DNA of 63,822 nucleotides, filler included, from an uncultured Methanosarcinales archaeon (GCA_964434475.1; 10 parts of 10 records of this genome joined end to end with filler, not necessarily neighbours in it), one strand, 5' to 3'. Counted from the first letter of the whole stretch, positions 36,444 to 60,664 are shown. Notes: generated by a model from the sequence alone, not told the origin. Made by a program: numbers and translations.

Positions 36444-36463
36444 TAACATCAGGATCCTTGTTA
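36444..36463. repeat. Miniature attC-like cassette junction TAACATCAGGATCCTTGTTA
   Basis: Identical copies at 37426, 55988 and 57439; variants at 56551, 60445 and, reversed, 50403 and 54751. Confidence 0.8.
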
Positions 36464-36654
36464 GTTGCGTCTTTTCTTAGAAAAGAAAAAGAATAGTGCA
36501 ACGATTCACAAGAAAATCCTATATTTTATGTATACCAAATTTTATAACTTTTTGAGTGTTTCACGAAGTGAAAAAATCCCTAAGAGTTATTTTCAAGGGC
36601 ATCTAAACAAAATAGAAAATGCGACACTCAAAGACAAACATTTTAGAGCAGAAC

Positions 36655-37350
36655 TTAAATTTCAAGAAGAAGTGCTTTATGATCAGAAATATTTAAACCC
36701 AAACATGAAAAAGATTTTAATTTAATTTTTTTTGGAATAAGGAAATAATCAAGACTGTATTTTGCAGGCGGATAAGAAATATATTTTTTTATCTGTCTTG
36801 AACAAACATATTCTTTATCTATTAAATTATAAATTATTTTAGGATCTCTTATGTTAAAATCTCCAATAATTAAAGGATTAATATTAAGTCTTTTAGCATA
36901 ACTTAAAGTTTCTTCAAGATGCAATTTACTAAATAAGTCATCTTGAGAATAATGAACTACTAAAATATTCTTTAAATTATTATCTTCGATTTTAATAGAC
37001 AAAATTCCTCTTGTATATTTATCATCAGGATGTTGCTTTAATTTTTTCTTTTTTACTTCTAGAACAGGTATGTTCGATAGTACTGCAATACCTTCGAAAC
37101 AATCAGGATTTTTTGGAGTTTTATTAACTTGATTAACGTCCATTGTTTTTCTAAAAACGCAATGTTTAAAACCTAAAATTTTGTTTAATTGTTTGGCTTG
37201 GTTATTTCCTTTAGAATTAAACCGTAAATCATCTCTTACTTCTTGAAATGTAACAATATCGGGATTATGTTTTTGAATGAACTTAATAATCTTTGATTTT
37301 CTTTTATCAAAATCATTATAATTCCATAAATTCAAATTTAAAATTTTCAT
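36655..37350 (-). CDS. Endonuclease/exonuclease/phosphatase (EEP) family protein; cassette cargo
   Basis: ILNLNLW, PDIVTFQEV, GIAVLS, IIGDFN, LDY, SDH. Confidence 0.9.
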   Translation of the reverse strand: MKILNLNLWNYNDFDKRKSKIIKFIQKHNPDIVTFQEVRDDLRFNSKGNNQAKQLNKILGFKHCVFRKTMDVNQVNKTPKNPDCFEGIAVLSNIPVLEVKKKKLKQHPDDKYTRGILSIKIEDNNLKNILVVHYSQDDLFSKLHLEETLSYAKRLNINPLIIGDFNIRDPKIIYNLIDKEYVCSRQIKKYISYPPAKYSLDYFLIPKKIKLKSFSCLGLNISDHKALLLEI

Positions 37351-37425
37351 AGTCTAACAACTATTTCAATTATTATTTAAGTTTTGCTTTTTATTTAAAA
37401 AATAGGACTCCTTATTTATTGTAAT

Positions 37426-37445
37426 TAACATCAGGATCCTTGTTA
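37426..37445. repeat. Miniature attC-like junction
   Basis: TAACATCAGGATCCTTGTTA exact copy. Confidence 0.8.
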
Positions 37446-37494
37446 TGTGGGGAGACTGCAAGTCGACCGACCAAAGGGACAGTTTGAAAACCAT

Positions 37495-37749
37495 TTACTT
37501 TTTCTTTTCAAAATTTATAAATGAAGCAACTAGTACGGATTCAATTGTTGTGATTAAGATTGCAAAAAAATCTGATGGTCCAGGAAGAAAAAAATCAAAT
37601 AATTTTACAGATCCATTTAGAAATGGACCTAAATCTTTAGGTAAACTAGAAAAGAAGATTTGTAAAATATATCCTATAAATAATAGGCTGAGAAATGAAA
37701 CTACGAATTTTATTATGATTTTTTTATGTTTTTTAAAATTAAGTTTCAT
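37495..37749 (-). CDS. Small two-TM hypothetical protein; cassette cargo (start re-assigned to ATG 37749)
   Basis: MKLNFKKHKK...; the longer ORF-track version runs through the attC-like site; TATA-like TTTATATA about 25 bp upstream. Confidence 0.6.
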   Translation of the reverse strand: MKLNFKKHKKIIIKFVVSFLSLLFIGYILQIFFSSLPKDLGPFLNGSVKLFDFFLPGPSDFFAILITTIESVLVASFINFEKKK

Positions 37750-37805
37750 ATTTGTGAATAGTAATGAGTTTATATAAATTTTTGGGAGGGTTTTCAAATT
37801 GCGTA

Positions 37806-37915
37806 TAACATCAGGATTTAGAGAAGTTTCGAACGAAGTGAGAAATTTGGGGAATAATCGGGAAATCGCTTGGCGATTTAGCGTAGCGACCGATTTTCCC
37901 TCTAAATCCTTGTTA
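37806..37915. repeat. Long (110-bp) attC-like site
   Basis: TAACATCAGGATTTAGAG ... CTCTAAATCCTTGTTA: same ends as the mini junctions, with an extended stem and internal hairpins. Confidence 0.75.
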
Positions 37916-38143
37916 GTTTCGTTTCCCATACGTAAGTGTGGGAAACCTGCGTCCGCAGAGTCGGGAAAGAGGGCGTTCTATCTAATGAGCGAATGCGATA
38001 CATCAAGAACAAGAATTAAAGGGGACAATTTTAATTTAGCAAAGCCAAAGGCTCTTTTAAAAACATATTTAGGAGTTCCAAAAAACTATTTGAATATTCT
38101 TTTAATTGCAGAAATTATTGCTTCAATTAATTCGGCAATCATT

Positions 38144-38905
38144 TTAATCTAATAATGCATTCAATTTTCCATAGAATTTTTGACATTCGCTAACTGAACC
38201 TGCCCAAGTTATAGCGTTGAAATTAAAACTTAGATCTTTTTTTCTTTTTCCTGTATCGTATACAATCTTCAATACTGATTTATGTGGTCTAAAACTTTGA
38301 CTATCTGTATCTCCACCTAAAAATCCCATAACTAAACCTCTTGCTAAACTAGGAGTGTATGAGTCATCAGTTATTTCAATATTTTCTATGTCTTCAAATT
38401 TAATTTCAAATTTTTCTTTATTAGCATTCTTAAAAATGACTTTTTTGTTAGCTATTGCTAACCAACCATTTGTTGGATCAGACACTTCTTTATGACCACC
38501 AAAAAAAGTTACTGAATTTTTAATAACTGCATTTGGAATTGAAACATCTTCTAGGGTTTTTCTATCTTTTCTAACTTGATCTGCTGCCCAAGATTGAATG
38601 TCTAATTTACATTTTTTACATTTATATGCTCCAAGTTGCCCACCACATTCAGGACATTTTCCATTTAATTTTGCTATAATACTAACATTTTTTGCTTTCC
38701 CAGCAACATCCCAAAAACCTAGTCGTTTACCCGTTTTTGATTTTTGTGTAGAACTTTCTTCATCTTTATCATCTGATTTTGGGCTTTTAACAAAACCAAT
38801 AATTCCCAAAGGTAAAGCAACTATGCCGATACCCATACCTAAAGTTAGAAATCCACCTATGGACAACCACCATTTATATTTTACACAAAAATCTATGAAT
38901 GTCAT
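38144..38905 (-). CDS. Membrane-anchored protein with Zn ribbon and possible PH-like domain; cassette cargo
   Basis: N-terminal TM, CPECG...CKKC, G.L.I.NKKVIF...I.FEDI..IEI pattern. Confidence 0.6.
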   Translation of the reverse strand: MTFIDFCVKYKWWLSIGGFLTLGMGIGIVALPLGIIGFVKSPKSDDKDEESSTQKSKTGKRLGFWDVAGKAKNVSIIAKLNGKCPECGGQLGAYKCKKCKLDIQSWAADQVRKDRKTLEDVSIPNAVIKNSVTFFGGHKEVSDPTNGWLAIANKKVIFKNANKEKFEIKFEDIENIEITDDSYTPSLARGLVMGFLGGDTDSQSFRPHKSVLKIVYDTGKRKKDLSFNFNAITWAGSVSECQKFYGKLNALLD

Positions 38906-38993
38906 TTAACTTATAAAAAGAATGAGTTATATTTAAATCTTTCGGTGTATATTCAGTGAAAAGGCAATATATAAATAGGGCATATTTAGTTCC

Positions 38994-39257
38994 ATGGATA
39001 AGTTAGGACTAATCTCATGGATTTTAAGAGGCTCACAGAGAAGAGTAATTTTTAAAGTAATTAAAGGAAAAATGATTCCAGCACAAATATATCAAGAAGC
39101 AAGAAAAATAAATGATAAAATTACTAGAAACAATGTAAGCGATATTTTAAGAGAAATGAGAGAACAAAAATTAGTTGAGTGCATAAATCCAAAGGAAACG
39201 AAAGGCAGAATATACCAATTAACTAAGAAAGGGCAGGAAATCAAGACAGAAATTTAA
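38994..39257 (+). CDS. Small archaeal winged-helix transcription regulator
   Basis: R..IFK, P.QI, NVSDILREM....LVECINP....GRIYQLT.KG. Confidence 0.8.
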   Translation: MDKLGLISWILRGSQRRVIFKVIKGKMIPAQIYQEARKINDKITRNNVSDILREMREQKLVECINPKETKGRIYQLTKKGQEIKTEI

Positions 39258-39292
39258 TTATTTTTAAATACTAGCGATATTTCTTTTAATCT

Positions 39293-40309
39293 ATGGATAA
39301 AAATAAATATTATGATGAAATTAAACAATTGCTAAATAAAGATTTAGACTTAAACAATAATATTAATAATCCATGGTTAGCATTTTTTAAAGATGATCAG
39401 TTTAATCTTCAAATATGCAATAACATAGTTAATTCTATTAAATATGTTAAAGAAAAAGATGAAGCTTTTTTTAATAAAATATTAAAACGTATTAATTCTA
39501 GTGACTATTGCGAAATATCATCAGCATTATCAGAAATAAGAGTTTTTTATTTTTTGCACAAAATTAATTTTAATGTAGAAACAAAAACTAATGAAAATGG
39601 AGCAAAACCCGAATATTATCTTGATAAAGATTATATAGTCGAAGTAAATGCACCAAATTATAGAAAAGAAGAATTAGTTTTATTAAATGATTTTAAGAGT
39701 AAAACTAATTCTCAATGTATAACTGAACATAGTACTACTCCATTTGGAAAAAAAGATAAGTTTACTGAGATTACTGCAAGTAATGTTATATCTAAAATTG
39801 CATCTATAAAAGGAAAAGAACATCAATTTTCAGATAATAAAAAGAATATTCTTTGGTTAGACTTTCAACATCCAATTTGGTGGTGCATAAATAATCCTGA
39901 GAGATCATTACCTTTTATTTCAAAGCAAGGAGGAATTTACTCAGGGGAATTTTGGTATTCTTTTTTTGGTTGGAAAGGAGCATTAATTTATGAAGGAAAA
40001 GTAGCAACTGTAATGGAACATCCAGGGAGATTTAATCAAAATAATACCAAGATTGATATGGTTATCATTTCATTACCCTCAAAAAATATCTTATTTCAAA
40101 ATCCAAATGGTAAAAAAATTGAAAATAGCTTTTTTGACAAAATCTTAGGTTTATCTTTTTTATCATTGGAATATTCTTGGGTGAATTATCCGTCTGAAGA
40201 TCTCAAAGAAAGATTATTACTTATATATGACCAGATTATGTCTTTTAATAGAGATTTATTTTATATTCCTAACTCTATTGAAAAAGATATAAAAGATTAT
40301 AATATTTAG
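39293..40309 (+). CDS. Hypothetical protein (possibly PD-(D/E)xK-like fold); cassette cargo
   Basis: 338-aa ORF; SE...KPE...VEV pattern only loosely resembles restriction-endonuclease folds. Confidence 0.5.
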   Translation: MDKNKYYDEIKQLLNKDLDLNNNINNPWLAFFKDDQFNLQICNNIVNSIKYVKEKDEAFFNKILKRINSSDYCEISSALSEIRVFYFLHKINFNVETKTNENGAKPEYYLDKDYIVEVNAPNYRKEELVLLNDFKSKTNSQCITEHSTTPFGKKDKFTEITASNVISKIASIKGKEHQFSDNKKNILWLDFQHPIWWCINNPERSLPFISKQGGIYSGEFWYSFFGWKGALIYEGKVATVMEHPGRFNQNNTKIDMVIISLPSKNILFQNPNGKKIENSFFDKILGLSFLSLEYSWVNYPSEDLKERLLLIYDQIMSFNRDLFYIPNSIEKDIKDYNI

Positions 40310-40403
40310 TTTTTGGAACTCCATTTAACTTTTTTAAAATTGTCCCCTCTCTGTTTTTTAGCCCTCTTTCCCGATTGAAACTAACAAGTATTAAACGACA
40401 CAC

Positions 40404-40772
40404 TCAATTTTTAGAGCATTTGTTACAAATGCCTTTAACTTCAATTTGAAAACTAGTTATAGATCCAGGAATTTTATCTTTAAGAAAATCTAACGAATCA
40501 ATGTTAAAGTGGATTACTTTTCCAGTTTTCTCGCAAACAAAGTGGCAATGACTTTTATTTTCTTTTGAATAAACCAATTTACCATCGCAAGCATATGAGA
40601 AAATGTTTCCATTTTTCCTTAATGTTTTTAGAAATCTATATATTGTGGCAAGCCCGATATTTTTATCAACTGATTTGACGTTTTCATAAAGGTCTTCAGC
40701 AGTAAAAAAAGTTTTGAATCTGTTTATTTCTTTCCCGATAATCTTTTTTTGCTTTGTACTTCTTGTTATCAT
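40404..40772 (-). CDS. Fur-family regulator (Zur-like)
   Basis: TKQK, TAEDLY, IGLATIYRFL, HCHFVCEKTG, GICNKC; divergent from the zinc ABC operon. Confidence 0.9.
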   Translation of the reverse strand: MITRSTKQKKIIGKEINRFKTFFTAEDLYENVKSVDKNIGLATIYRFLKTLRKNGNIFSYACDGKLVYSKENKSHCHFVCEKTGKVIHFNIDSLDFLKDKIPGSITSFQIEVKGICNKCSKN

Positions 40773-40840
40773 CCTTATTGATAATGAGAGCCAGTAAAGT
40801 TTATAAAGATTTTGATTTATTTATATGCTTGGTGATTATT

Positions 40841-41782
40841 ATGAAGATTAAAACTTTATTATTACTAGGAATTCTTATATTAACATTATTTCTGGTTGGG
40901 TGTAGTCAGGTTGCTCAAGAACAGAAAGATGACAAAATTGATGTGGTTGTGAGTATCCTTCCTCAAAAAGCATTTGTAAATGCAGTTGGAGGTAATTTGG
41001 TGAATGTAAAAGAACTTATTCCACCAGGAGGAAGTCCTGCAACATACGACCCAAAACCAAGCGATTTAGCATTGGTTGAAAAAGCCGACATTTATTTTAG
41101 AGTAGGGCATATATATTTTGAGAAATCCCATGTTGATAAATTTGCTGGATTGAATCCGGATATGAGAATAGTTGATACTTCTGTTAATGTAGAGTTGAGG
41201 CATTTTGGAGGACACGAAGACCATCATCATGAGCATGAAGGGGAAGTTGAAGAACATGAACATGAACATGAACATGAGGAAGATCGTCATGAAGGAGTTG
41301 ATCCACATCTTTGGCTTTCTCCAATGCAGGTAAAAAAGCAAGTCGATGTTATTGCCCAAACACTTGTGCAAGTTGATCCAGCTAATGTTGATACCTATAA
41401 CAGCAATGCTGAAAAATTCAAAAAAGAGCTAGATGCTTTATACACTGAAATAGAATCAACATTCTCTGAATTGAAAACAGACAAACTGATGGTTTTCCAT
41501 CCTGCGTGGGGCTATTTTGCAGACGAATATGGCTTGGAGCAGATAGCAATAGAAGACTCTGGAAAAGAGCCTACAGCGCAAGAACTTCAGCACATAATTG
41601 GGGAAGCTAAAGAAGAAGAGATTAAAGTAATCTTTGTTCAATCGCAATTCAGTAAGGAAACTGGTGAATCTGTTGCAGAAGAAGTTGGGGCAGTTGTTGT
41701 TTCTATTAATCCATTATCAGAAGATTACATTAATAACCTAAGAAATGTTGCTACAACAATTGCAGAAAGTTTAAATAAATAA
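40841..41782 (+). CDS. znuA: Zinc ABC transporter substrate-binding lipoprotein
   Basis: Lipobox LVGC, His/Glu-rich loop, DPHLWLSP, FHPAWGYF; GGTGA ribosome-binding site before ATG 40841. Confidence 0.92.
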   Translation: MKIKTLLLLGILILTLFLVGCSQVAQEQKDDKIDVVVSILPQKAFVNAVGGNLVNVKELIPPGGSPATYDPKPSDLALVEKADIYFRVGHIYFEKSHVDKFAGLNPDMRIVDTSVNVELRHFGGHEDHHHEHEGEVEEHEHEHEHEEDRHEGVDPHLWLSPMQVKKQVDVIAQTLVQVDPANVDTYNSNAEKFKKELDALYTEIESTFSELKTDKLMVFHPAWGYFADEYGLEQIAIEDSGKEPTAQELQHIIGEAKEEEIKVIFVQSQFSKETGESVAEEVGAVVVSINPLSEDYINNLRNVATTIAESLNK

Positions 41783-41846
41783 TTGTTTTATTTTATTTTT
41801 TTATGAAAAAATAATGCTCAAAAACTAGGTTTTTGTTGTTTAAAAA

Positions 41847-42551
41847 ATGGAAAGAAAAGAAATCATTAAATTAGAAAAAGTAACTTTTAGTTATGGAAAA
41901 GAGGAATTTCTAAAAGACATAAGTCTCTCAATCTATGAGGATGATTTTCTTGGAATCATAGGTCCAAATGGTGGTGGAAAAACAACACTGCTAAAATTGA
42001 TACTTGGCTTGCTTGAGCCTAAAAAAGGGAAAATAAGTGTATTTGGAAAATCTCCAAAAAAAGCACGCCATGAAATAGGCTATTTATCTCAATTTAAGAA
42101 CATTGATTTTGATTTTCCAGTTACAGCACATGGGATTGTCTTGCTTAGCAGAGTTGGAGATAAATTATTTAAAAGATATTCTAAAGAGGATAAAGAAGCT
42201 GTTAAAAAATCAATGAAAGAATTGGGTATTTGGAATTTAAGAGATAAAAAACTAAATGAATTATCTGGTGGAGAAAAGCAAAGAGTATTTGTTGCAAGAG
42301 CTCTAGCTAATAAGCCAAAAATTCTGATTTTAGATGAACCAATGTCAAATCTTGACATCCACATACAAGAAGAATTCTACAAGATTCTTAAAGAATTGAA
42401 CAAGAAAATCGCAATTGTCATTGTTGATCATGATCTTGAGATGGTTTCAAAATACGCAAAAGAAGTAGTCTGTGTTAACAAGTGCAATAAGCATGCGTTA
42501 AGGTATCATGGTGCAGATTCACTAAAGATGAAGGAGATCTGCAATGTTTGA
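41847..42551 (+). CDS. znuC: Zinc ABC transporter ATPase
   Basis: GPNGGGKTT, LSGGEKQRV, LDEP. Confidence 0.9.
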   Translation: MERKEIIKLEKVTFSYGKEEFLKDISLSIYEDDFLGIIGPNGGGKTTLLKLILGLLEPKKGKISVFGKSPKKARHEIGYLSQFKNIDFDFPVTAHGIVLLSRVGDKLFKRYSKEDKEAVKKSMKELGIWNLRDKKLNELSGGEKQRVFVARALANKPKILILDEPMSNLDIHIQEEFYKILKELNKKIAIVIVDHDLEMVSKYAKEVVCVNKCNKHALRYHGADSLKMKEICNV

Positions 42552-42659
42552 AGTTTTAAGTTTTCAATTTTTCCAGAATGCTCTGATTGTTGCTATTTTG
42601 GCATCAATTGCAGCAGGAGTAATTGGGACATACATTGTAGTTAAAAGAATGTCTTTGAT
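42544..42659 (+). CDS. znuB: Zinc ABC transporter permease, partial
   Basis: MFEVLSFQFFQNALIVAILASIAAGVIGTYIVVKRMSL runs into the linker. Confidence 0.85.
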
Positions 42660-42888: not shown

Positions 42889-45800
42889 CTAAGATTCAAA
42901 TATTGGCTTTAGGTCTATACTTGGCATAAGATCTAAAGTGACAGAATCTTCCAGCTTGTTAGAACTACCATCAAAGCATACTATTCCATATGTAAATGTT
43001 CTTTCAAAATCTTCGCCCGAGTTTGTTGCAAGGAAATCAATAGCATCAATCACTTTTCTTTCAACAGAAGTATAGCAAAGACCTCTTAGATTTCCGTCAG
43101 ATATGCTCGAGCAAGGAGTTGAGCTAAAGGTCTTCAATGCAAGCATATAATAACATTCATCATTTGTACCGCAATTTGACTCTATATAGTTTGCGTCTTC
43201 TTCAACATAATCATTACAATTCTGTTGTGTCAAGAATGAAGAGATTGTACCTATGCTGGCGCAATCTGCACTAGAACTTTCTCTAAACGCTTTGTTGAAA
43301 TAAGATATATCATTACACTCATCAGATCTGTCTTGGTCAGATATATAATTGCAATAGCTTGGCAGATCATAGCTTATTGCTATGATGTTGTTTAGTTCAT
43401 CATCATCAGCAGGATTTAAATTTAAATTGTTAATTCTTAAATCTAAGTAATTAGTTATGTCAATATAAGAACTTTTCAACCTATCTCCAAAATCAAGCAT
43501 AGTATAACTTTCTCCATCAAAAGTATAATTACAAGTTGAATATTCTGTTAAATAAAGAGTCAAAGAATATTCTAAATTACTTATAACTTCAGGATTAACT
43601 GTTTCTATCTGAGGAGGATTAGAATCATAGCTATCGCAGATTCCATTATTAATAGTATCTGACTCTACTTCACTACCCCCATATTCCATGGTTTTAACAA
43701 CATATTTACCAATCTCATTATTATAGACAATATTAAACTTCTCAACAACACTTCCATCTTGTCTCTCTAATCCTATTCCTGCACAGTCAAAGCAGCCATC
43801 TTTGTCAAAATCTCCACAGATGTTCTTGTCAAAAGGATCTGCATCATTTGTTAGATCATCTGTTGAATAACAATAATCTGCAAATTCATTAGGATCGCAA
43901 ACTCCGTCATTATCATCATCCTTGTCATAATCTTGTGCATTAGTATAATGCAAAGGCCTATCGCTGTATCCGTCTGCATCATTATCATTACAGATTTCAC
44001 TTCCTCCGTTTGCTGTGCTGTTTACTATAAAATTATGTACAATTATACTGTCCCCTTTCTGGACTAATCCACTGCAGTCATCACAGCCGTCATTATCAAT
44101 ATCATAACAGACCTTAAATGATGTATCGTCTTTATCAACCACTCCAGGTAAAGCACATCCTGAATTAAATCCTTCAATACCAACTCCATCTTTATCCTTA
44201 TCAACGCAAGTATCTGTGTTTCCAGATTCACACTTACCATCCTTATCAACATCATCTTCTTCTGTTTCTATTATTAGATATTCTTCTCCATTATCTATAG
44301 CGGTTTGATAAGCGTCATAATCAAAATAAGCACCCCTACAATCATCGCAATTATCTTCATCCCAATCTCCGCAAACTAAAGGATTTTCACGAGCACTATC
44401 ATATTCGTCAGGAACACCATCATTATCACTATCATCATCAGCAGGATCACAAATGCCGTCATTATCGCTGTCTGCTTCAAATTCGCTTCCGCCTTTTAGT
44501 CTATTCCTTACTATATAATTATCTGTTGCAGGATTGATTTCATACTTCCTCTTTTCAACAGTCCAATCTGGAGAATCTTGGTTCCATAATATTCCGCCGC
44601 AGTCATCACAACCGTCTCCATCAAGATCTCCACATTTGTTTGTTATATATCTATAATCATTTACTTCACCAGGTAAACAGATGCCGTTAACATCCCTTTC
44701 GCAGTCCATCTCATTAGGCACTCCATCTCCATCAATATCATTATCGCAAGCATCTCCTTTTATATCAATGCCATAAACTCCTCCTTTTTTTTCTTCTAAA
44801 ATAAGATCCATATTCTCTTGATTAGGATTTGCATCTAAAGGACAGTTATCTACATTATTGTTGGACAATGAACAAGTTGCACCAGAAGGTATAAAGAATG
44901 AATTGCACACTTCATCCTGATCCCTATCAGGATTACATACGCTGTCTTCTTCACCATTATCAATGCAAGTGCTTACTTGAGATATATTATATTCTCCTTT
45001 TTTGTTTAATGTGATAAGGGTTATGTAATTTATACCTACAAGATCCAAAGGCAATGTTCTATCTAACTTTAATCCTTCATACTGTCCGTTAAAAGGGGCT
45101 TCTGAACTTTCAAGATCCCAATAATATCTATATGCATCACTATCTTCCAAAGCTTCAAGATGTACTGATTCCCCCATATAGAAAGTTGTACCTTCTTCAG
45201 GATATAATATAGTGGCAGAAGGTATTTCTGCATCTGTAAAATTCTGGTTTGTCCTTAATTTGGCAGTTATCTCTTTCCAATTTGTAAATGTTTGAGGGTC
45301 AGAACTATAAACTTGATAATACATTTGATCTCCTGGAGTTACAACAGGCTGGCAGGATATTATCTTATCAAGCATGTCTTCCTGCTGATAATAGTTGATT
45401 ATATTCTCACACAGATCTGTTGTAAAATTATAATATGTTATTCTCATAACTTCATTAGCACCCAAATATTTACTTGAATCTGTTATCTTTTCCTTAACGG
45501 CATGCACTATCTTATCTTCGTGTTTTTCGAAATATATATTATCATAATTTTTTATTACATCAACCTTATCATAATTAAACATATCAACTCTTGGCTTTAT
45601 GAAATTAGATAATATATCGCTGATTGCTTCTGTAGGATTAGTAAAGAACTTAAGAACTATATCAAATATTGATGTTTCAGCAGGATCAAATACGGTTTGA
45701 GTAAAATCCTTATCAAAGAATATTACAGATCTATCCTTAAATTTATACCAGAATGTAAAAGGCAAGCTTTGAGTATATATCCTGCATTTTTCATAATTAT

Positions 45801-50235: not shown

Positions 50236-50402
50236 TTTATTACATTATTAAAATTTTCTATTTTGTGTCAGTCTCAAATTTACTGTAAGTGTGCCCCTTG
50301 ACGATTGTCCTTGATGTTTGCTCTTTCGATTGGACGACGGTGTGCCCCTACGTCATAACTTTGCGGACGCAATTTTCCCACACTTCGTATGGGAAAAGAT
50401 TT

Positions 50403-50421
50403 TAACAGGCCGCCGATGTTA
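50403..50421. repeat. Miniature attC-like junction (reverse orientation) TAACAGGCCGCCGATGTTA
   Basis: Reverse complement reads TAACATCGGCGGCCTGTTA. Confidence 0.75.
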
Positions 50422-50583
50422 TTTGCAATTTAGTTTAAGTTTAAACGTTCTTTTAGAAAAAGAACCAAAAGGGGGGATTTTAGTCCTTCGGACATTTTGG
50501 CTCCCTATGGTCGAAATTTAATATACCTGAAAGGCGAAAAAAACAAAACTTTATATACAAATGTGTTCATTTGTATTTTAGGG

Positions 50584-50730
50584 ATGGCTATGGTATCAAA
50601 AAATGTTACTCTAAGAGTAAGTTCTGAACTTTATGATAAGTATAAATTGTATTGTAAAGAAAAGGGTTTATTAGCTTCTAGACAGTTTGAAATTTTTATG
50701 GAATCAGAGCTAAAAAAGAGAAAAAAATAA
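50584..50730 (+). CDS. Ribbon-helix-helix DNA-binding protein
   Basis: KNVTLRVSSELYDKYKLYCKEKG...SRQFEIFM pattern; TTTATATA promoter upstream; leads the operon. Confidence 0.7.
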   Translation: MAMVSKNVTLRVSSELYDKYKLYCKEKGLLASRQFEIFMESELKKRKK

Positions 50731-50731
50731 G

Positions 50732-51583
50732 ATGAAATTTGTAAAAAAAATAAAACCAAAGTCAAAAAATGTAAAAGAACATTTCTTATTTACAGCTAAT
50801 GCTTTAAAGATTTTAAAACAAATTCCAGATAAAAGCATTACCTTAGTTGTAACAGATCCACCATATAATGTTGGATTGAAATATAATACTTACAATGATA
50901 AAAAAGAATGGTCTAAATATTATGAAGACATGGGTTTAGTTTTAAATGAAATTTATAGAATTTTAAAGGATGATGGAAGTTTATATTTGATTAATTATCC
51001 TGAAATTAATGCTAGAACTTTACCTTACTTAGATAATGCAAAATTAAAAATGAAACGATGGTTGACATGGCATTATCCAACAAACATAGGACATTCTAAA
51101 AAAAATTATACAAGAAGTCAAAGATCAATTTTGTTTTGTACAAAATCTGAAGATTACATATTTAACAAAGATGCAATTGTTCAACCCTATAAGAATCCAA
51201 ATGTTGGTAAAATAAAAAAGTTAATTGAAGCAGGGAAAAAAGGAAGAACACCATATGATACATTATCAATGGAAGATATTTTTGAAATGGATAAAATTCA
51301 AAATCCCGATGTTATTAATATAAATTTATTAAAAAATGTTTCAAAACATCGTGCAGGATCAAAAGATAAAACTGCAAAAGATCATCATCCTTGTCAGTTA
51401 CCTAGTTCACTAATTGAAGTTTTTATTAAAGCTAGTAGTAATGAAGGAGATATTGTTTTAGATTGTTTTGCAGGAACTTTTACAACTTCTGCTGCTGCAA
51501 AATTATTAAATAGAAAATCAATAGGTATCGAATTAGATCCTGAATACACTAAACTTGGTCTTGCGAGGTTGAAAAATGAGTAA
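50732..51583 (+). CDS. Beta-class N4-cytosine/N6-adenine DNA methyltransferase
   Basis: TDPPYN catalytic motif precedes HP.Q.P and VLDCFAGTFTT...GIE SAM-binding motif. Confidence 0.92.
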   Translation: MKFVKKIKPKSKNVKEHFLFTANALKILKQIPDKSITLVVTDPPYNVGLKYNTYNDKKEWSKYYEDMGLVLNEIYRILKDDGSLYLINYPEINARTLPYLDNAKLKMKRWLTWHYPTNIGHSKKNYTRSQRSILFCTKSEDYIFNKDAIVQPYKNPNVGKIKKLIEAGKKGRTPYDTLSMEDIFEMDKIQNPDVININLLKNVSKHRAGSKDKTAKDHHPCQLPSSLIEVFIKASSNEGDIVLDCFAGTFTTSAAAKLLNRKSIGIELDPEYTKLGLARLKNE

Positions 51584-53282: not shown

Positions 53283-53284
53283 AA

Positions 53285-54154
53285 ATGACTAAATATATAA
53301 ATAACTCTTCTGAAAAAAACCATATAAGGGAAAAGTGGGTTGAATTTGCAAAATTAAATTATGATGATGAACATGAGTTTTCAATGATAGGATTAACAAC
53401 GGAAACATTAGATGATGTTAAATTATTTTCAGAACATAATTTATTTGATATTACTGAAACTGAAACAGGACAATTAAGATTTAATAAGGGAAAGTTTAAA
53501 TGTTTTGAAAGTGATGGCTCAACCTGCAGAAAATTAACGGAACTTTTACCTAATGAATTTGCAATTCATAGTGAAATAGGATTTGAAATAGGGAAAGAAT
53601 ATAATAAAGTTTTTGTAGAATTGCATCAGAGTAAAATATTTCCTTGTGATGTGATCAATCTTGATTTCACAGGTTCTATTTCCAATGTAACAAAGAGGAA
53701 TATATTAGAGGTTCTTAATTGGATTTTTAAAATTCAAAATAAATTTCAAAAAAATTTTTCATTATTTTTAACATTTGCAAATGCTAATGGAACAAATGAA
53801 GAAACCATATTTAATAAATTTGAAGAAATAATTCAAGAGAATATTTCTAATGCACATACAAATTTTAGAAATATGTTTGAAACTAAGTTTAATTCTTTAC
53901 AAAATATAAAAAGCAATCATAATCAATTTTTAGCAACAGGAATTTCTAAATATTTAGTTAAATTCTCATCAGAAAACAAATTTAATTTGAAAAAATATGA
54001 CTTTTATTATTATGAAAAAACGAGACATAATATGATTTCATTATTATTCAATTTTGAATTTTCTAATTTAACAATTCCTCAAATTGATATATATAAAGAA
54101 GATTGTTTGAAATGTTTAGATGACATTAAGAAGGTGACAACAAATGAGCAATAA
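53285..54154 (+). CDS. Hypothetical protein, possible SAM-methyltransferase-like Rossmann fold
   Basis: CFE and CDVINLDFTG, LFLT, YYY...M pattern; tightly coupled in the operon. Confidence 0.5.
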   Translation: MTKYINNSSEKNHIREKWVEFAKLNYDDEHEFSMIGLTTETLDDVKLFSEHNLFDITETETGQLRFNKGKFKCFESDGSTCRKLTELLPNEFAIHSEIGFEIGKEYNKVFVELHQSKIFPCDVINLDFTGSISNVTKRNILEVLNWIFKIQNKFQKNFSLFLTFANANGTNEETIFNKFEEIIQENISNAHTNFRNMFETKFNSLQNIKSNHNQFLATGISKYLVKFSSENKFNLKKYDFYYYEKTRHNMISLLFNFEFSNLTIPQIDIYKEDCLKCLDDIKKVTTNEQ

Positions 54155-54575
54155 TAAAATTTCAGGAGATTTTGGAGAACAAGAAGTTGTTGATTTAGTT
54201 CCTTGTCCTAATTGTAAAAAGAAATTAATGCTTTTACCAAAAAATTATCCTCTTTATGATTTACAATGTACTGGTTGTTCTTTTAGAGTTCAAGTTAAAA
54301 CTAATAATTCAAAACCAAAATCTGAAATATTTGGTGCAGGTTGGGAAATAATCGATAAAGTTTTGAAATCTGGTTTTATAATGCCCCCTTTAATTGCTAA
54401 TTTTAAATGGATCGAGAAAGGTATTGAACATCAAAAAATCATTTTTTATCCTTTTATACCTAAGTCTAATCTTAAGAAAAGACAATTATCATCTACTGCT
54501 AGAAGAGCAAACTATAAAATGTTTAATTATATTGGTCTAGATAAAATTCCAAGTTTTGTTTTATATGAAAAATAG
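54144..54575 (+). CDS. DpnI/Dam-replacing-family PD-(D/E)xK nuclease domain protein
   Basis: G.FGE, CPNC, N.P..DL.C..C...QVK, GA, KR.LS.TARRA; no C-terminal winged helix. Confidence 0.75.
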   Translation: MSNNKISGDFGEQEVVDLVPCPNCKKKLMLLPKNYPLYDLQCTGCSFRVQVKTNNSKPKSEIFGAGWEIIDKVLKSGFIMPPLIANFKWIEKGIEHQKIIFYPFIPKSNLKKRQLSSTARRANYKMFNYIGLDKIPSFVLYEK

Positions 54576-54750
54576 CTACTTCGCCTTTCTTCTTGTCCTT
54601 GATGTGTCGCATTCGCTCTTTCTTATCGGACTAAAATCCCCCGTCCTTCGGACATATAGACTCCCTTTGGTCGAAATAATATAAACTTAAACTAAACTCT
54701 TCGGTTTCCCTTCGGGACGTTGCACTAAACCTCGGTCTTGCAGACGCAAC

Positions 54751-54770
54751 TAACAAGGATCCCGACGTTA
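54751..54770. repeat. Miniature attC-like junction (reverse orientation) TAACAAGGATCCCGACGTTA
   Basis: Reverse complement TAACGTCGGGATCCTTGTTA, two substitutions from consensus. Confidence 0.8.
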
Positions 54771-54921
54771 GGCGTAATTTTTGTCCCACCTCGCAGAACT
54801 TTGTTCAGCTGATTTCTCAGANNNNNNNNNNNNNNNNNNNNNNNNNNNNNNNNNNNNNNNNNNNNTTAATTAATTAANNNNNNNNNNNNNNNNNNNNNNN
54901 NNNNNNNNNNNNNNNNNNNNN

Positions 54922-54975
54922 AAGTGTTCAACTACCTAATTTTTTCGGTTTTTAGAAAAATCTGCACAACTCCAG
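54922..54975. mobile_element. Multi-copy element end (putative IS terminus), identical to 60765-60817
   Basis: AGTGTTCAACTACCTAATTTTTTCGGTTTTTAGAAAAATCTGCACAACTCCAG at two contig starts with different right flanks. Confidence 0.7.
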
Positions 54976-55018
54976 AACTATAGAAACATTTATAAATGCC
55001 TATACCAAACTAAACTCT

Positions 55019-55915
55019 ATGAAACAAGTGATTAAATCTGCTGAAGAATCTGTAAGTAGAGTATTGGAATTTTAAAACGGTGTAGGAACACCTTTAAGCT
55101 ATCGTCCTAGACTCCAATATATTGATGGAATTTGTCCACAAAGACCTGACGCTTTGGCGATGATTAGAGAAGAATTTGAAACTTTAGATAAGTATTTTGA
55201 TTTCATTTCTCAAAATTTAGCAAGAACTATATGGAAAGATGCCTATGGAATAGACATAAGTGATGAAGCCATTGCAGAAGTTACAAGAACCCAAAAAGAT
55301 AAACTTGGAAATATTTTAATTCCACAAGAATTTGAGTCAGGAGCGGATGTTTTGATTTTCCAACCATACCGAAATCATAGTAAGGAACAGGAGGATGGGG
55401 ATGAAATTATTGTTCATGAGGTTTGGCATTTGATTGAAAAAGAAAGAGGTGTATTGCAAGCGCATCCATTTATCACGGAAGGAACTGCAACCTATGCAAT
55501 GAAAAGATTCAGAGGAAAAGGTTGTGATAAACCATTTGAAAAATTTGAGGATTTCTTTATGATGATGTATCTTGGAGCCGCGAATATTGTTCAGAATTAT
55601 GTGGGAAGTTCAGAAAATCCATATAGAACAATGCTCGATAGTCAAGTAAGGAGAAAAATTCAACAAGATATGTTAGGGAGAGTTAAACCTGTCTTAGTTG
55701 AAAGAGTTAAAAGGTCATTGGAAGATGAAGATAATCAAAAAGTGATGGCTCATATAATGCGACAAATTCCAGAATTTCAAGGATTAGAAGGATATTTAAC
55801 TGCTGAAGGAATCATGGAAGCTTATAGACAAATGGGAGCAACTAAATTAGCCGATGAGTTACAAGGGAAAGATTTAGAAGGTTTAATGTATTGGTTTAGG
55901 ATGGCAGGTTTTTAA
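55019..55915 (+). pseudogene. HExxH metallopeptidase-like gene with in-frame TAA at 55073-55075 (or intact from 55154/55160)
   Basis: TTTATAAA box about 25 bp before ATG 55019; frame continuous with ORF 55154-55915 except for one stop; VHEVWH...TEGTATY motif. Confidence 0.55.
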
Positions 55916-55987
55916 GACGCCCGCCCGTTTTCTATTAATTTCCCAAATCGGAGATTTGGACTATTGCGAGCCAACAAAAATTGGACT

Positions 55988-56007
55988 TAACATCAGGATC
56001 CTTGTTA
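55988..56007. repeat. Miniature attC-like junction
   Basis: TAACATCAGGATCCTTGTTA exact copy. Confidence 0.8.
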
Positions 56008-56076
56008 AACGTCCCTGACGAAGTGAGAGCGCAGCGTGGGTCGAGGCGAAGCCGAAGAAGTTTTTATTTTGGCACG

Positions 56077-56493
56077 TTAAAACATAGAAAGAACTTGAGA
56101 ATACTTTGATTTAATTTCTTCTAATTTTGCTTTAGTAATTTTGAAGTCTTCATCTTTCAATTCCCAGCAAAATTCAGTAACTGGTTCACCATCAAGACTT
56201 TCATCAAAGGATAAATAATTCATATCATCTCCACTTGGACCATAAAGAAATTCATAATCATAATGCGCTAAAAATTCTTGATATTCTTTGATATTCAAAT
56301 TATTATAATTGTCAATAATATAATTAATTACTTGGATTATGAATTTTATAATTCTTTGAGCAAATTCTTTATCTTCGGGAATTATTTCATCAGCATATTT
56401 TTTCCAATCATTCTGAATTTTGCTGTATTCTCTATTGATTTCATAATATTCATTCTCAAGTTCTTTAGGTAACTTAATCTTTAACATATACAT
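56077..56493 (-). CDS. Acidic hypothetical protein; cassette cargo
   Basis: Single ORF filling the space between junctions 55988 and 56551. Confidence 0.65.
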   Translation of the reverse strand: MYMLKIKLPKELENEYYEINREYSKIQNDWKKYADEIIPEDKEFAQRIIKFIIQVINYIIDNYNNLNIKEYQEFLAHYDYEFLYGPSGDDMNYLSFDESLDGEPVTEFCWELKDEDFKITKAKLEEIKSKYSQVLSMF

Positions 56494-56550
56494 AGTAGAA
56501 TAAGTTGAATCTTAAAAAAGTATCGAAAGTGCTGAAATAAAAATTGCAAT

Positions 56551-56568
56551 TAACATCGCGCGCTGTTA
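56551..56568. repeat. Miniature attC-like junction variant TAACATCGCGCGCTGTTA
   Basis: Conserved TAACATC and TGTTA ends with a different self-complementary core. Confidence 0.75.
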
Positions 56569-56699
56569 GTTTCGTCTGACCTATTGGAAGACCTAAAATT
56601 TAATGCAACGTCCCGAAGGGAAATTTTTGAGTTTTCATAATCGCCGTCCATCCAAAAAACGAAGTGATACATCATGACAAAGAATGAAGGGGCAAAAGC

Positions 56700-57365
56700 T
56701 TATTTTTTCTGAAATAGATAAAATATAAATTGGTATGGTTTTACTTTGGAAGAATCAAAGTATTTGATTCTATCTACGGGTTTAAAGCTCAGTTTGTCAA
56801 GTAACTTTTCATCGTTAACAATATCAATTAGATGTTGTGTGCTCCTATCTACCCTAGAATCTATTTTTTTCATTTCTACAACTTGATCAAAATATTCATT
56901 AGCTAAATAAAATCCGCCTGGTTTTAGTACTCGACCAATTTCTCTAAGTGCTTGAGTGTAGTTTATGCTAAAATTATCAAAAGTCATTTCATTAGAATGA
57001 ACTACATCAAAGAAATTGGATTCAAAATCCATTTGTTCAACCGAACCAACTACTTTATGAACTCTTGGATATTCATCATGTTCAAAATTTTTTGGATCTT
57101 GATCTAATGAATATAAGTTTTCAGGCTTTAAACCATAATAAAGTAGACCTTTACAAAAAACAGAACCTAAACCACATCCAACATCTAAAACAACTTTATC
57201 TTTTACATTCTGAATCAAGTTTTTAAGGAGTGGATGAATTGGTTGAATTACATTATATTTTTGTTCTTCTAAATACATTTGTAATATGCCTGGGTCAGGA
57301 CTATTTCTATGAAAACTTGACAATTCATCTTGATCTTGACCACTTGGTGAATTTTTAGCAACCAT
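56700..57365 (-). CDS. Class I SAM-dependent methyltransferase; cassette cargo
   Basis: VLDVGCGLG, FDVV, ALREIGRVLKPGG. Confidence 0.9.
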   Translation of the reverse strand: MVAKNSPSGQDQDELSSFHRNSPDPGILQMYLEEQKYNVIQPIHPLLKNLIQNVKDKVVLDVGCGLGSVFCKGLLYYGLKPENLYSLDQDPKNFEHDEYPRVHKVVGSVEQMDFESNFFDVVHSNEMTFDNFSINYTQALREIGRVLKPGGFYLANEYFDQVVEMKKIDSRVDRSTQHLIDIVNDEKLLDKLSFKPVDRIKYFDSSKVKPYQFIFYLFQKK

Positions 57366-57438
57366 ATTTTAAAGTAACATGTGGAATGTTATAAAGCTTT
57401 TGCCCCATTTACATTTAGGCGATTACGAAAATTGAAAC

Positions 57439-57458
57439 TAACATCAGGATCCTTGTTA
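57439..57458. repeat. Miniature attC-like junction
   Basis: TAACATCAGGATCCTTGTTA exact copy. Confidence 0.8.
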
Positions 57459-57674
57459 AACTCTCCGTTAGGATTGATTTTTAGTGCAACGTTCCGAAGG
57501 AAAAAATCAAAGTCGAGAAAGAGGGCGTTCTATCGAATGAGCGAATGCGATATATAAAAATAAACATATATGGGTGAAATAAGAGATATCTAGTTTTTCA
57601 TATTATGAGTTTAGTTTTTAATTTATATTACTTATATCCTTAGATTTATAAATTAGTTTTTATTTCCTAAATAA

Positions 57675-58541
57675 ATGAGTAGTAAAATTAAATATGGACC
57701 TCATTTATTTCCAGGTGGTCCATTATATTATATTCAATCTGAAAAAAAATATATTCAGAAAGTACATAATGAAATCATGCTTAGTTTTGCAATTGCACTA
57801 AATGAAAATGAAAATGGTTCTATAGCTCAACAAATTAAAATAAGAGATTCTGATAGATTGCAATTATCCTTTATGAATTATGGAAATACAGAACTAGTTT
57901 ACTTGCTTAATATTAATAAACAAAAATATACTCTTTTGATTAATCCACCGCATATGGATAAAACAGTTATAAAAAATCAGTTTCAAAATCTTCGTCGACT
58001 TCATAATAATGATTCAAGATTTATTGTTAATGCACATTCTTTTTTTGAAAATGAAAAATATGCTATGTATCTTACAGAATATATAGACAATGCCTTGTGC
58101 GTTGGAAATGAAGAACCCAATGTGCTTGGAGTTTGGAATCCACTCCCTCATTATCATTTTGAAGAATTTAATAGAGAAACAAGCGATTTAGTTAATATAT
58201 CTAGAATTGCACATATTGTGAATTTATATGATGATCTAAATCAAATAGGGATTTCCAAAACTCAAATTAGTGGAAATGATTTTATGTTAACACAAAACAC
58301 TGATTTTCAAGATTTACAGTCAATTATTGATAATACACGAATAATTGGCGCAAGAGACTCTATTTCTATACCTTTTGAACATTATATTGAATTATTAAGA
58401 GAAGAGTTTCAAGTCGCTACCTCAAGAACAGATATTGATGTTCTAGAAGGAAGACTGAAAATAAATCATCATTCGAAAATGCCAATTTCAAAAGATATAA
58501 TTAATGAAGGTATAGAACAAGGATACATGTTAAGAAAGTAA
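57675..58541 (+). CDS. Hypothetical protein, possibly a divergent kinase-like fold; cassette cargo
   Basis: G..ELVY, YLTEYI, GNDF patterns give a weak resemblance only. Confidence 0.55.
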   Translation: MSSKIKYGPHLFPGGPLYYIQSEKKYIQKVHNEIMLSFAIALNENENGSIAQQIKIRDSDRLQLSFMNYGNTELVYLLNINKQKYTLLINPPHMDKTVIKNQFQNLRRLHNNDSRFIVNAHSFFENEKYAMYLTEYIDNALCVGNEEPNVLGVWNPLPHYHFEEFNRETSDLVNISRIAHIVNLYDDLNQIGISKTQISGNDFMLTQNTDFQDLQSIIDNTRIIGARDSISIPFEHYIELLREEFQVATSRTDIDVLEGRLKINHHSKMPISKDIINEGIEQGYMLRK

Positions 58542-58753
58542 ATATTAATAAAATCATTCTTAAATGTATAATATGTCTGTTAAACGTCCCGAACGAAGTG
58601 AGAGCGCAGCGTGGGTCGAGGAATTTTGAAAAAATTCCGAAGAAGTTCAGAAAAGACTTTGCTATCGAGCGAACAAAGTGAGCCATCAAGCAAATACATC
58701 AAGAGCCCCATTCCACAAGAACATTTATATATTTATTTAAATAATTTAATCAT

Positions 58754-59554
58754 ATGCAGAACTCAAATAAATTATGGTATCGATCAAGAGGGTTAGAGAT
58801 ACTAGAATCTAGATTTGGTAATAACTCCATTCAAAATTTTATTGAGAAGAAGTCGATTCATCAAAATGAATTTAGAATACTTGAAATTGGTTTTGGTGAA
58901 GGTAAGTGCCTGATTGAACTTAGGAAAAAATATCCTAACAAAAATATATTATTATATGGCATTAATGACAAAAAGAAAGGCAATATGCATTCTAAAATAG
59001 ATTTTTATAATAATGCTGAAAAATTTGGCCATCCAATTCTAAAAACCAACTTACCAAAGCCATTCTTTTATGATGTTGGAAAAGGTCTCAAATTTGAAAA
59101 TAATTATTTTGATTTGATTATTAGTCAGGTTTGTATTCCATATATTGATAATAAAGCATTTTTATTTGAAGAAATCTGGCGAGTCTTGAAAAAGAATGGA
59201 AAAGCTTTCTTACAAATAGATTCTGAAACTAAAGAAGGATATCCTGATTTCATGAAATTATGTAAAGATACTCCTCGGATGGTAATCTATCAAAATGATA
59301 AAATTATTCCAACAAAAAAAATATTTGATGTTGCTAAAAAGCAAGGATATAATATTAATTTTTCTAGGCAAAAAAATAAGAACGAAAGTTTTATTATTAC
59401 AATGGAGAAAAATCTTAACAAGAAACTAAATTTTAATTTGCTTTTTGATGGCAATTCAACATTATATCTCACCAAGTTAAAGGATACAGACGAGTATAAA
59501 AAACAAAGTGGGGTTTGGTGGGGTACAAGAAGTGTTTTTAAGGTTAAAAAATGA
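58754..59554 (+). CDS. Class I SAM-dependent methyltransferase; cassette cargo
   Basis: ILEIGFGEG, FDLIISQ, EEIWRVLKKNG. Confidence 0.88.
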   Translation: MQNSNKLWYRSRGLEILESRFGNNSIQNFIEKKSIHQNEFRILEIGFGEGKCLIELRKKYPNKNILLYGINDKKKGNMHSKIDFYNNAEKFGHPILKTNLPKPFFYDVGKGLKFENNYFDLIISQVCIPYIDNKAFLFEEIWRVLKKNGKAFLQIDSETKEGYPDFMKLCKDTPRMVIYQNDKIIPTKKIFDVAKKQGYNINFSRQKNKNESFIITMEKNLNKKLNFNLLFDGNSTLYLTKLKDTDEYKKQSGVWWGTRSVFKVKK

Positions 59555-60396
59555 CAGAAAAATTAATACAACAAATACTGAAGGATAATCCCTTTTCAGA
59601 TTTTTTAAAGATTAAAGAGATAAAATCATTAGCAGGACATGGCGCAATTTCTGGAGAATCGTATCTAGTTATAGATGAACATAACAAAAAGTATAAATTA
59701 AGGTTATGTTCAAAAACTAAACAAGCAAAACGAATTGAAAGAAATGTCAAAATATTACCTTATGCATTCCCTAAATTTTATGGCAGAGAAAATAACTATG
59801 TTCTATTTGAATGGGTTGATGGTGATCTTTTTTATGATGTTCTATCTAAACCAATTCCTAATGAAGTTTACTATCAAATGGGAAAACTTGTTGGAGAAGC
59901 TCATGAATTAAATGATATTGATGAATCTAAATCCGCCGATTCATTTTTTGATTCTATGATTAGAAATATTTGTGATGGAGAACAAATTGATAAATCTTTT
60001 ATTGATAAAATTACTAGAAAATATAAAGAGTTAAGACATAAACTAAAAATTGACATAGTCTTAGAAATTAACGATATTCATCCTAGAAACTTCATAATCA
60101 AGAATCGAACAAATCCCAAAAAAACAAAAATTTACTTCGTTGATGAAGATGGTTTTGGGCATAAAATAAAAGGTTTAGGACTGGCAAAACCCTTTTTTAT
60201 TGAAGGTTTAATTAAAACGAAAAAGCAAAAAGATTCTTTTTGGCGAGGTTATAATGAACATCACAGTAATGATTACTTTGACAAAGATTATCAAACATTT
60301 GTGACATTTGTCCAGATTGTTCGTTCAATGGCAGCAAGATCTAGAAACAATAAAGATATATCTGATTTAATAATTATGATAAAAAAATACATCTAG
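59551..60396 (+). CDS. APH/choline-kinase-like phosphotransferase; cassette cargo
   Basis: YKLR, FEWVDG, GKLVGEAH, DIHPRNF (Brenner motif), VDED. Confidence 0.8.
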   Translation: MTEKLIQQILKDNPFSDFLKIKEIKSLAGHGAISGESYLVIDEHNKKYKLRLCSKTKQAKRIERNVKILPYAFPKFYGRENNYVLFEWVDGDLFYDVLSKPIPNEVYYQMGKLVGEAHELNDIDESKSADSFFDSMIRNICDGEQIDKSFIDKITRKYKELRHKLKIDIVLEINDIHPRNFIIKNRTNPKKTKIYFVDEDGFGHKIKGLGLAKPFFIEGLIKTKKQKDSFWRGYNEHHSNDYFDKDYQTFVTFVQIVRSMAARSRNNKDISDLIIMIKKYI

Positions 60397-60444
60397 TGGA
60401 ATGGGGCTCCTTCTAAAAATTAAAAGTCTTTTTTGAATTGAGTT

Positions 60445-60464
60445 TAACATCGGGATCGCTGTTA
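60445..60464. repeat. Miniature attC-like junction variant TAACATCGGGATCGCTGTTA
   Basis: Conserved ends, variant core. Confidence 0.75.
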
Positions 60465-60530
60465 TATTTCCCGAAGGGAAATTTCAGAGTTCTTTAAAAT
60501 GCGACAAAGAATAAATTTATGGGCTGGGCG

Positions 60531-60664
60531 TTAATTTATTATCTGTTTTTGGATTAAGAAATTTTTAATTAATTTATACATTTCTTCATATCCATTTGAA
60601 TTAGGATGTAATCCATCATCTAATAACTTTTGGTAATTTAATTTTGAAAATTCCTGAAACATAT
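60531..60664 (-). CDS. SGNH/GDSL hydrolase C-terminal fragment; cassette cargo, cut by contig edge
   Basis: Manual translation ...LLDDGLHPNSNGYEEMYKLIK...IIN-stop contains the DGLHPN..GY block V motif. Confidence 0.75.

Follow-up and report, generated by a model that had tools for sequence, protein, structure and literature searches.

Candidate gene-cassette arrays joined at short hairpin-type sites in an archaeal genome, with an adjoining Xer-like recombinase gene in related genomes

Sites and contigs of the window

The window analyzed here, 63,822 nucleotides (nt) in length, consists of about 11 contigs of one metagenome-assembled genome (MAG; GCA_964434475.1) with N spacers between them. 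On three of these contigs (36201-42659, 49067-54821 and 54922-60664), genes lie between copies of a short site built of TAACATC, a variable centre and TGTTA. This arrangement suggests that the window holds parts of at least one array of gene cassettes assembled through site-specific recombination at a Xer-type platform, a reading to which we assign a probability of about 70%. The gene content of the window is archaeal (OapB/OapC, TYW3 and HerA-type proteins), and the records of the relatives with this element name Woesearchaeota or Nanoarchaeota.

The pattern TAACRTC-N(4-9)-TGTTA occurs eight times in the window (short-form sites in Table 1), and none of 100 dinucleotide-preserving shuffles of the window reached that number (mean 0.13 motifs, maximum 1). 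Two further sites of a long form, in which the centre holds a structured insert of ~70-90 nt, bring the total to 10, and the sites on each of the three contigs share one orientation. A first reading of the window, made from the sequence alone, had listed the same eight copies and had noted their co-orientation on every contig. Both observations were reproduced here, with identical coordinates and strands; the two long-form sites had been overlooked. The conserved element reaches ~120-150 nt when the flanking parts are included, longer than the junction of 18-20 base pairs (bp) given by this sequence-only reading. Its remark that the site is too short for a normal attC agrees with the spans reported below.

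Anatomy of the site

Alignment of the window copies with copies from other genomes revealed one order of parts, namely AATT, 5 variable nt, TAACATC, a GC-rich variable centre, TGTTA, 5 variable nt and a folded module of 60-80 nt. The 5 variable nt before TAACATC are termed the left arm and the 5 variable nt after TGTTA the right arm; the AATT anchor, 5 nt upstream of TAACATC, is conserved. The centres are often palindromic (e.g., GGATCC, GGAATTCC and GCGCGC). The span from TAAC to GTTA measures 14-23 nt in 35 sites and 73-158 nt in 14 sites. Short sites form a single 10-bp stem with an adjoining asymmetry of 2 nt versus 1 nt, and the insert of the long-form sites, which can be 70-150 nt in length, prolongs the central hairpin.

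The module beside the hairpin is also structured. The consensus fold of 16 copies of the commonest (type-1) module contains a 7-bp stem around an invariant AGTGCAACG together with a small hairpin, and for 7 of the 10 pairs at least one copy shows compensatory changes that preserve the pairing. Upstream of the sites lies an AT-rich, TATA-like sequence.

The long-form inserts (e.g., window 37820-37905 and L080:11720-11840) follow a common plan of their own, consisting of GAAGT, a hairpin, an ATTTGGG-type motif, a second hairpin and GAAC. A second TAAC/GTTA pair is present near their ends, as though one site were nested within another.

Arm complementarity and the point of exchange

Sites were extracted by a rule in which the arms were not a criterion, from the three window contigs and from the arrays of four related genomes (G001, G002, G004 and G005). 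Amongst 43 neighbouring pairs of sites, the right arm of a site and the left arm of the following site were exact reverse complements in 18, or in 22 when G.T pairs were accepted; shuffling the left arms 100,000 times yielded on average 1.49 perfect pairs, with a maximum of 8. Within a single site, the two arms matched perfectly in 0 of 49 cases. As this arm rule holds far above chance, the units between sites behave as cassettes.

Seven units of the window are bounded on both sides. Their ends are perfectly complementary (5+4 bp) in three, complementary in four when G.T is accepted, and complementary at 4/5 positions in one further unit. Joining the own ends of each unit in silico produced a 10-bp stem in four of the seven, one of them through G.T. 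The sequence-only reading had reported complementary ends for most units, and this claim holds perfectly in three of the seven; its fourth example, GTTATGTG/CGTATAAC, pairs only via two G.T wobbles, and the GATTTTAAC partner of another example is supplied by the long-form site at 49106-49199.

The two halves of the centre pair with each other (perfectly over 3 nt) within a site in 27 of 44 cases, amongst which the long forms were chosen for such pairing, and across a cassette in 8 of 34. Since the centres pair in place more often than across units, the exchange would lie between an arm and the centre. At the proximal site before the recombinase gene, described below, the left arm comes from the last cassette and the centre from the recombinase's own site, so that the exchange would fall at the TAAC arm. 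The point of exchange thus appears, from these sequence comparisons, to be the TAAC arm as written, which corresponds to G|TT on the opposite strand. The G|TT crossover proposed previously is retained, though on the complementary strand and as the mirror image of the layout then implied. Exchange at the tip of the hairpin was considered as well and is unsupported by the same counts.

Amongst near-perfect arm pairs, G.T mismatches outnumbered A.C mismatches by 8 to 3, a weak hint at which strand folds. A few centres, such as those of the G004 site at 80016 and the G002 site at 82948 (L080 and L081), look like hybrids whose left and right halves stem from different palindromes, a feature not predicted by a model of exchange at the arm boundary.

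Cassettes and their cargo

The cargo of the cassettes is accessory and includes toxin-antitoxin pairs, methyltransferases, a restriction-modification block and nucleases. In the window, two or three S-adenosylmethionine (SAM)-dependent methyltransferases are found amongst the accessory genes listed in Table 1, and the cassettes of relatives carry ParE and PIN toxins as well as GNAT, HD, PLD, NYN, Fic, nucleotidyltransferase, radical-SAM and reverse transcriptase genes. Cargo genes occur in both orientations relative to the sites.

Table 1. Sites, cassettes and cargo genes on the three site-bearing contigs of the window (ORF, open reading frame)
Feature	Coordinates	Strand	Remarks
Short-form site	36444-36463	+	AATT anchor at 36435; centre AGGATCCT
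Cassette 1 of contig 36201-42659	36464-37425		Degenerate type-1 module 36460-36539 at start; ends pair over 9-10 bp including two G.T pairs
Endonuclease/exonuclease/phosphatase-family gene	36655-37350	-	Cargo of cassette 36464-37425
Short-form site	37426-37445	+	
Small cassette, ~360 nt	37446-37805		Unannotated short ORFs only
Long-form site	37806-37915	+	Left arm and TAACATC, ~90-nt insert, TGTTA; then module with CTGCGTCCGCA to ~37975
Long-form site	49106-49199	-	Near contig start; left arm exactly complements right arm of site at 50403
Cassette	49200-50402		YidD-like gene 49712-49987 (+), 133-residue ORF, 83-residue ORF; ends perfectly complementary, 10 bp
Short-form site	50403-50421	-	Centre GGCGGCC
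4.3-kb cassette, defence-type block	50422-54750		Ends pair at 4/5 variable positions
N6/N4 DNA methylase	50732-51583		Cargo of cassette 50422-54750
GHKL ATPase-domain protein	51576-53282		Cargo of cassette 50422-54750
289-residue protein without assigned function	53285-54154		Cargo of cassette 50422-54750
DpnI-like protein	54144-54575		Cargo of cassette 50422-54750
Short-form site	54751-54770	-	51 nt to contig end; type-1 module 54682-54754 (-)
Short-form site	55988-56007	+	To the left, 253-residue ORF without assigned function, 55154-55915
Cassette	56008-56550		138-residue ORF without assigned function, 56077-56493 (-); ends non-complementary (2/5)
Short-form site	56551-56568	+	Centre GCGCGC; type-1 module 56565-56646
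Cassette	56569-57438		SAM-dependent methyltransferase 56700-57365 (-); ends perfectly complementary
Short-form site	57439-57458	+	Type-1 module 57455-57527
3-kb cassette	57459-60444		288-residue protein without assigned function; methyltransferase 58754-59554; ends perfectly complementary
Weak APH-like kinase match	59551-60396		Cargo of cassette 57459-60444
Short-form site	60445-60464	+	200 nt to contig end

Distribution and evidence on mobility

A scan of one genome per species with the commonest 20-mer returned 78 loci (23 archaeal and 55 bacterial), a number that is about the chance level for the whole collection by our own arithmetic. Reading of the loci identified the full extended element in ~20 of the 23 archaeal loci and in 0 of the 55 bacterial ones. 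In the relatives, the short pattern is clustered, with 7 of 17 matches within 15 kb of one contig in G002 and 8 of 13 within 11 kb in G004, all of them on the plus strand in both genomes, and 3 of 7 within 4 kb in G001. The remaining matches have AT-rich centres and are similar in number to a reversed-pattern control (4-12 per genome). When the long forms are included, the arrays of relatives hold 8-15 sites over 9-20 kb. Sites with GC-rich centres form one co-oriented array, in one stretch of one contig per genome, unlike repetitive extragenic palindromes, terminators or miniature inverted-repeat transposable elements; the scatter between core genes that the sequence-only reading had named as evidence to the contrary was not seen.

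These data also bear on a different account of the elements, in which they would be small RNA genes, terminator or promoter units, or miniature mobile repeats sitting in the gaps of a variable island, the supposed cassettes being simply the genes between them. The compensatory changes in the module fold and the TATA-like sequence before the sites would suit such an account, as would the fact that the elements are 80-94% identical across genomes having different flanking genes. We nevertheless consider it improbable, because it leaves unexplained both the complementarity of the arm after one element to the arm before the next and the ending of the arrays at a matching site before a recombinase gene. 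Additionally, each genome has the elements at a single locus and not after its genes at large, the cargo lies in both orientations relative to them, and Rfam searches of the sites gave no family at gathering thresholds or at E values up to 5.

A ParE-antitoxin cassette is common to G004 and G002 (42 of 83 residues identical). Its two copies are homologous at the nucleotide level as far as TAACATC; the homology breaks off within the site, and the DNA that follows is unrelated. The start of the small window cassette at 37446-37805 is 93% identical over 60 nt to the start of a G004 cassette whose left neighbour differs. Homologues of the 138-residue protein encoded at 56077-56493 were detected in 3 of 200 genomes of the order, at 29-50% identity and with no sites beside them, a result that does not bear on mobility. 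The contigs of the one public sequencing run in which the stretch occurs, probably the source sample, compared with window contig 54922-60664, showed no excision and no alternative order, a result that is uninformative either way as contigs drop rare variants; the few joints observed there were other copies of the repeated module.

Several further features of the arrays were recorded. In G004, a complete site with its module lies inverted in an otherwise co-oriented array (G004:C4 near 75194, minus strand; L079), and over 160 nt it shares 87.5% identity with the region of the window site at 36444. The same array contains a near-identical duplication of ~490 nt (L079:17600-18370 versus 13780-14560) that includes the antitoxin, the site and the module as well as a portion of the ParE gene. 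The left edge of this duplication does not coincide with a site, so another process also reshapes the array. In the G002 array, a 347-residue protein (L081:17802-18845, minus strand) has both an archaeo-eukaryotic primase domain (TOTE-type) and a weak C-terminal tyrosine-recombinase match and may represent an integrated element inside a 6.5-kb unit. Also in G002, a gene for a 1778-residue secretion-type ATPase (L081:1674-7010, minus strand) is interrupted by intein splicing and LAGLIDADG domains.

Elsewhere in the window, Rfam called a 117-nt tRNA at 60866-60982 (plus strand, 42 bits), presumably intron-bearing, and ARAGORN called no tRNA in the whole window. An ORF of 1999 residues at 42889-48888 (minus strand) nearly fills its contig and matches only MopE-type metal-binding and thrombospondin type 3 repeats.

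The Xer-like recombinase

No match to PF00589 was obtained amongst the 60 window ORFs scanned, and a tblastn search of the window with a relative's recombinase gave a best E value of 1.3, in agreement with the earlier statement that no integrase is visible in the window. In the relatives, a Xer-like gene was found in 46 of 61 sampled genomes of the order. The genes nearest to that of G004 (at least 50% identity) mostly lie close to a contig end, at most a few hundred bases away, and their upstream side is cut off, as is to be expected beside a repeat-rich variable region.

Phylogenetic analysis separated a clade A of 23 genes (support 87/87) from a sister clade of five (93/81). A conserved proximal site, co-oriented with the gene and ~100-190 nt before its start codon, precedes 22 of the 23 clade-A genes, and a dif-like palindrome takes its place in all five members of the sister clade; these counts come from reading the upstream regions, the automatic tree labels being noisy. 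The proximal site begins with AATT and 5 variable nt (the left arm), which are followed by TAACAY and then by a hairpin, likewise conserved, of the TATTAAGCG type. Amongst the 13 loci with upstream DNA, nine have a cassette-type site upstream of the proximal site, and the arm rule between the last cassette site and the proximal site holds at 5/5 positions in five of these nine, at 4/5 in three and at 0/5 in one, where the script probably picked the wrong motif. In the sister clade, the canonical-type XerA genes (L112, L114, L115, L118 and L119) have a dif-like 11-6-11 palindrome directly before their own start codon. A proximal half-site before the G001 recombinase gene was rejected, as this gene belongs to the dif-type clade.

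Against the archaeal XerA model NF040815 (cut-off 220 bits), clade-A members scored 209.9 and 220.2 bits, an outlier from G005 171.8 bits and a sister-clade gene 246.4 bits, and the best structure matches of the recombinase were the XerA structures 4a8e and 5hxy. These affinities would also be expected if small double-stranded integrative elements had accumulated in tandem at a dif-like site, as integrative mobile elements exploiting Xer (IMEX) do, with duplex Xer half-sites, the cell's own Xer or a paralogue of it, and no folding of hairpins. The 18-nt form of the site fits the geometry of dif, two 11-nt inverted repeats with a 6-nt spacer according to the portion of PMC8371274 consulted, and a single Xer-like gene was found in G004. 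We regard this alternative as unlikely, since a duplex core needs a spacer of 6-8 bp and the arm spacing here ranges from 14 to 158 nt. Moreover, the outer 5 nt of the arms vary yet remain complementary within a cassette, which points to pairing and not to base-specific reading, and at least 7 of the 61 genomes have both recombinase clades, the other clade with its own dif-like palindrome.

The integron integrase is distinguished by an additional IntI-specific domain around patch III. The integron-integrase model TIGR02249 matched clade A in two stretches that skip model positions ~180-238, with scores of 132-186 bits (cut-off 265); the cut-off was reached in 0 of 5 related genomes, and all matches were split around the IntI-specific region. 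Judged by its sequence, the recombinase is thus Xer-like and without the IntI-specific insert, resembling an integron integrase by its position beside the array and not by family membership. The same results argue against a classical integron array lacking its integrase (CALIN), with diverged attC sites served by a true IntI in trans. Archaeal MAGs, those of Nanoarchaeota amongst them, are reported to contain integrons with IntI and canonical attC sites (PMC9668308, as far as the text consulted goes), and the relation between the arms is the same as that of R'' and R'. The sites described here are, however, far shorter than attC and have no second paired box, and the arrays abut a Xer-like gene, which together make a classical integron a very improbable explanation.

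Proposed mechanism and its assessment

The interpretation of the earlier reading, that cassette units are joined at a short recombination-type site, is supported by the arm rule in the window and in the four genomes. In the Xer-type platform that we favour, a cassette would be a once-circular unit carrying its own hairpin-forming site. In this site, a variable centre would be flanked by two arms of 10 nt each, one made of 5 private nt and TAACA and the other of TGTTA and the 5 nt complementary to them, and the structured module would adjoin it. The circle would recombine with a resident site next to the gene of a dedicated Xer-like tyrosine recombinase, exchange taking place between the TAAC arm and the centre, and insertion would divide the arms of the cassette between its two ends. 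Because insertion splits the arms in this manner, the arm after one junction would match the arm before the next, and the centre would stay intact at each junction. Viewed on the opposite strand, the layout would be the recombinase gene, the proximal site and then the cassettes, each ending in its own site.

The clade-A recombinase would be the enzyme that performs this reaction, the genome of the window presumably has it too, and the cassettes are probably still mobile. The substrate is likely to be folded single-stranded DNA. Such a substrate is favoured because an arm spacing of 14-158 nt is unfit for a duplex core with a fixed spacer and fits an arm-to-arm hairpin, because the outer arm bases vary yet stay complementary within a cassette, and because the adjoining module conserves pairing as well.

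Several observations weigh against this interpretation. A 10-bp stem has room for one recombinase monomer only, which leaves the synapsis of the short forms unaccounted for, and 25 of the 43 neighbouring arm pairs are imperfect, including 4 of 7 in the window. Excised circles and alternative cassette orders were not seen, the recombinase gene was not found within the window, and there is no close relative for comparison of cassette order, the best seryl-tRNA synthetase identity being 75% amongst 400 genomes (the tally of 347 of 400 for this protein includes 11 genomes flagged as unpublished, on which no claim rests). The sequence-only reading had proposed a search for a tyrosine recombinase, IntI-type or other, co-occurring with the motif; a Xer-like gene, not of IntI type, does abut the arrays of relatives, and the survey with the strict pattern is unclear. 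The strict short-form pattern was found in 17 of 61 genomes, of which ~10 were convincing by reading and only five of those had a detected clade-A recombinase, and many clade-A genomes were without strict-pattern sites. Incomplete assemblies and variant sites may explain this unclean co-occurrence. Additionally, the sole Xer-like gene found in G004 could also be its chromosome resolvase, and the array-adjacent recombinase of G005 sits on a long branch as an outlier and has no proximal hairpin of the typical kind.

Comparison with known systems

Integrons are the textbook example of a cell-owned gene-capture platform, with a chemistry tied to one integrase clade having a special insert and to long attC hairpins. 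The attC site folds into an imperfect hairpin of ~55-140 nt that contains R and L boxes as well as extrahelical bases. The arrays described here share with integrons the co-oriented array of promoter-poor accessory cassettes, the cassette ends that are complementary around an AAC/GTT core (as in R'/R''), a cargo rich in toxin-antitoxin, methyltransferase and defence genes, and a site structure that varies in length at its tip. Transcription of the recombinase gene likewise leads away from the array, and a special proximal site immediately precedes the gene, features seen in the relatives only. They differ from integrons in their recombinase, which falls with archaeal XerA and has no IntI-specific insert, in the paired part of the short site, which is one 10-bp stem with a small centre (14-23 nt in all) where the attC hairpin, with its R and L boxes, measures at least ~55 nt, and in the separate structured module beside the hairpin. 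Cargo genes in both orientations and cassettes holding several genes are further differences.

In Acinetobacter plasmids, the two sites that flank a pdif module lie in inverse orientation to each other. As in Xer/dif systems and in IMEX or pdif elements, the arrays combine a tyrosine recombinase of the Xer family with arms resembling Xer half-sites and with accessory genes so bounded, and accessory sequence beside the core possibly has a role. In contrast to Xer/dif dimer resolution, which has a single dif per replicon, many co-oriented sites make up one array, with 10 sites in the window and 8-15 per array in the relatives. The variable spacing of the sites, their private complementary outer arms and the dedicated paralogue with its own proximal site also set them apart.

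In the literature that we searched and in passages of PMC9668308, PMC8138268 and PMC8371274, no description of such a system and no Xer-served cassette arrays were found; the only integrons encountered there for archaea were classical ones with IntI and attC.

Implications

If the proposed reading is correct, a Xer-like enzyme without the insert acts on sites of 14-23 nt, which would mean that the integron design arose more than once and that much smaller sites suffice for an integron-type architecture. A whole class of cassette arrays would then be missed by standard integron finders, and the difficulty of assembling such regions from metagenomes would be explained. The combination of a short site and a compact enzyme could also serve as a recombination tool. 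In broader terms, and as a tentative suggestion that we hold at somewhat less than even odds, DPANN archaea may have evolved a second, independent integron-type capture platform, with a Xer paralogue that acts on miniature folded single-stranded hairpins at a site before the recombinase's own gene, each hairpin having a 10-bp stem whose outer pairs are private, a tip that can lengthen and a structured module alongside, and in this platform defence, toxin-antitoxin and modification genes are stored and shuffled in genomes of ~1 Mb. Such a platform would explain the fluid pool of defence and modification genes in these very small symbiotic archaeal genomes.

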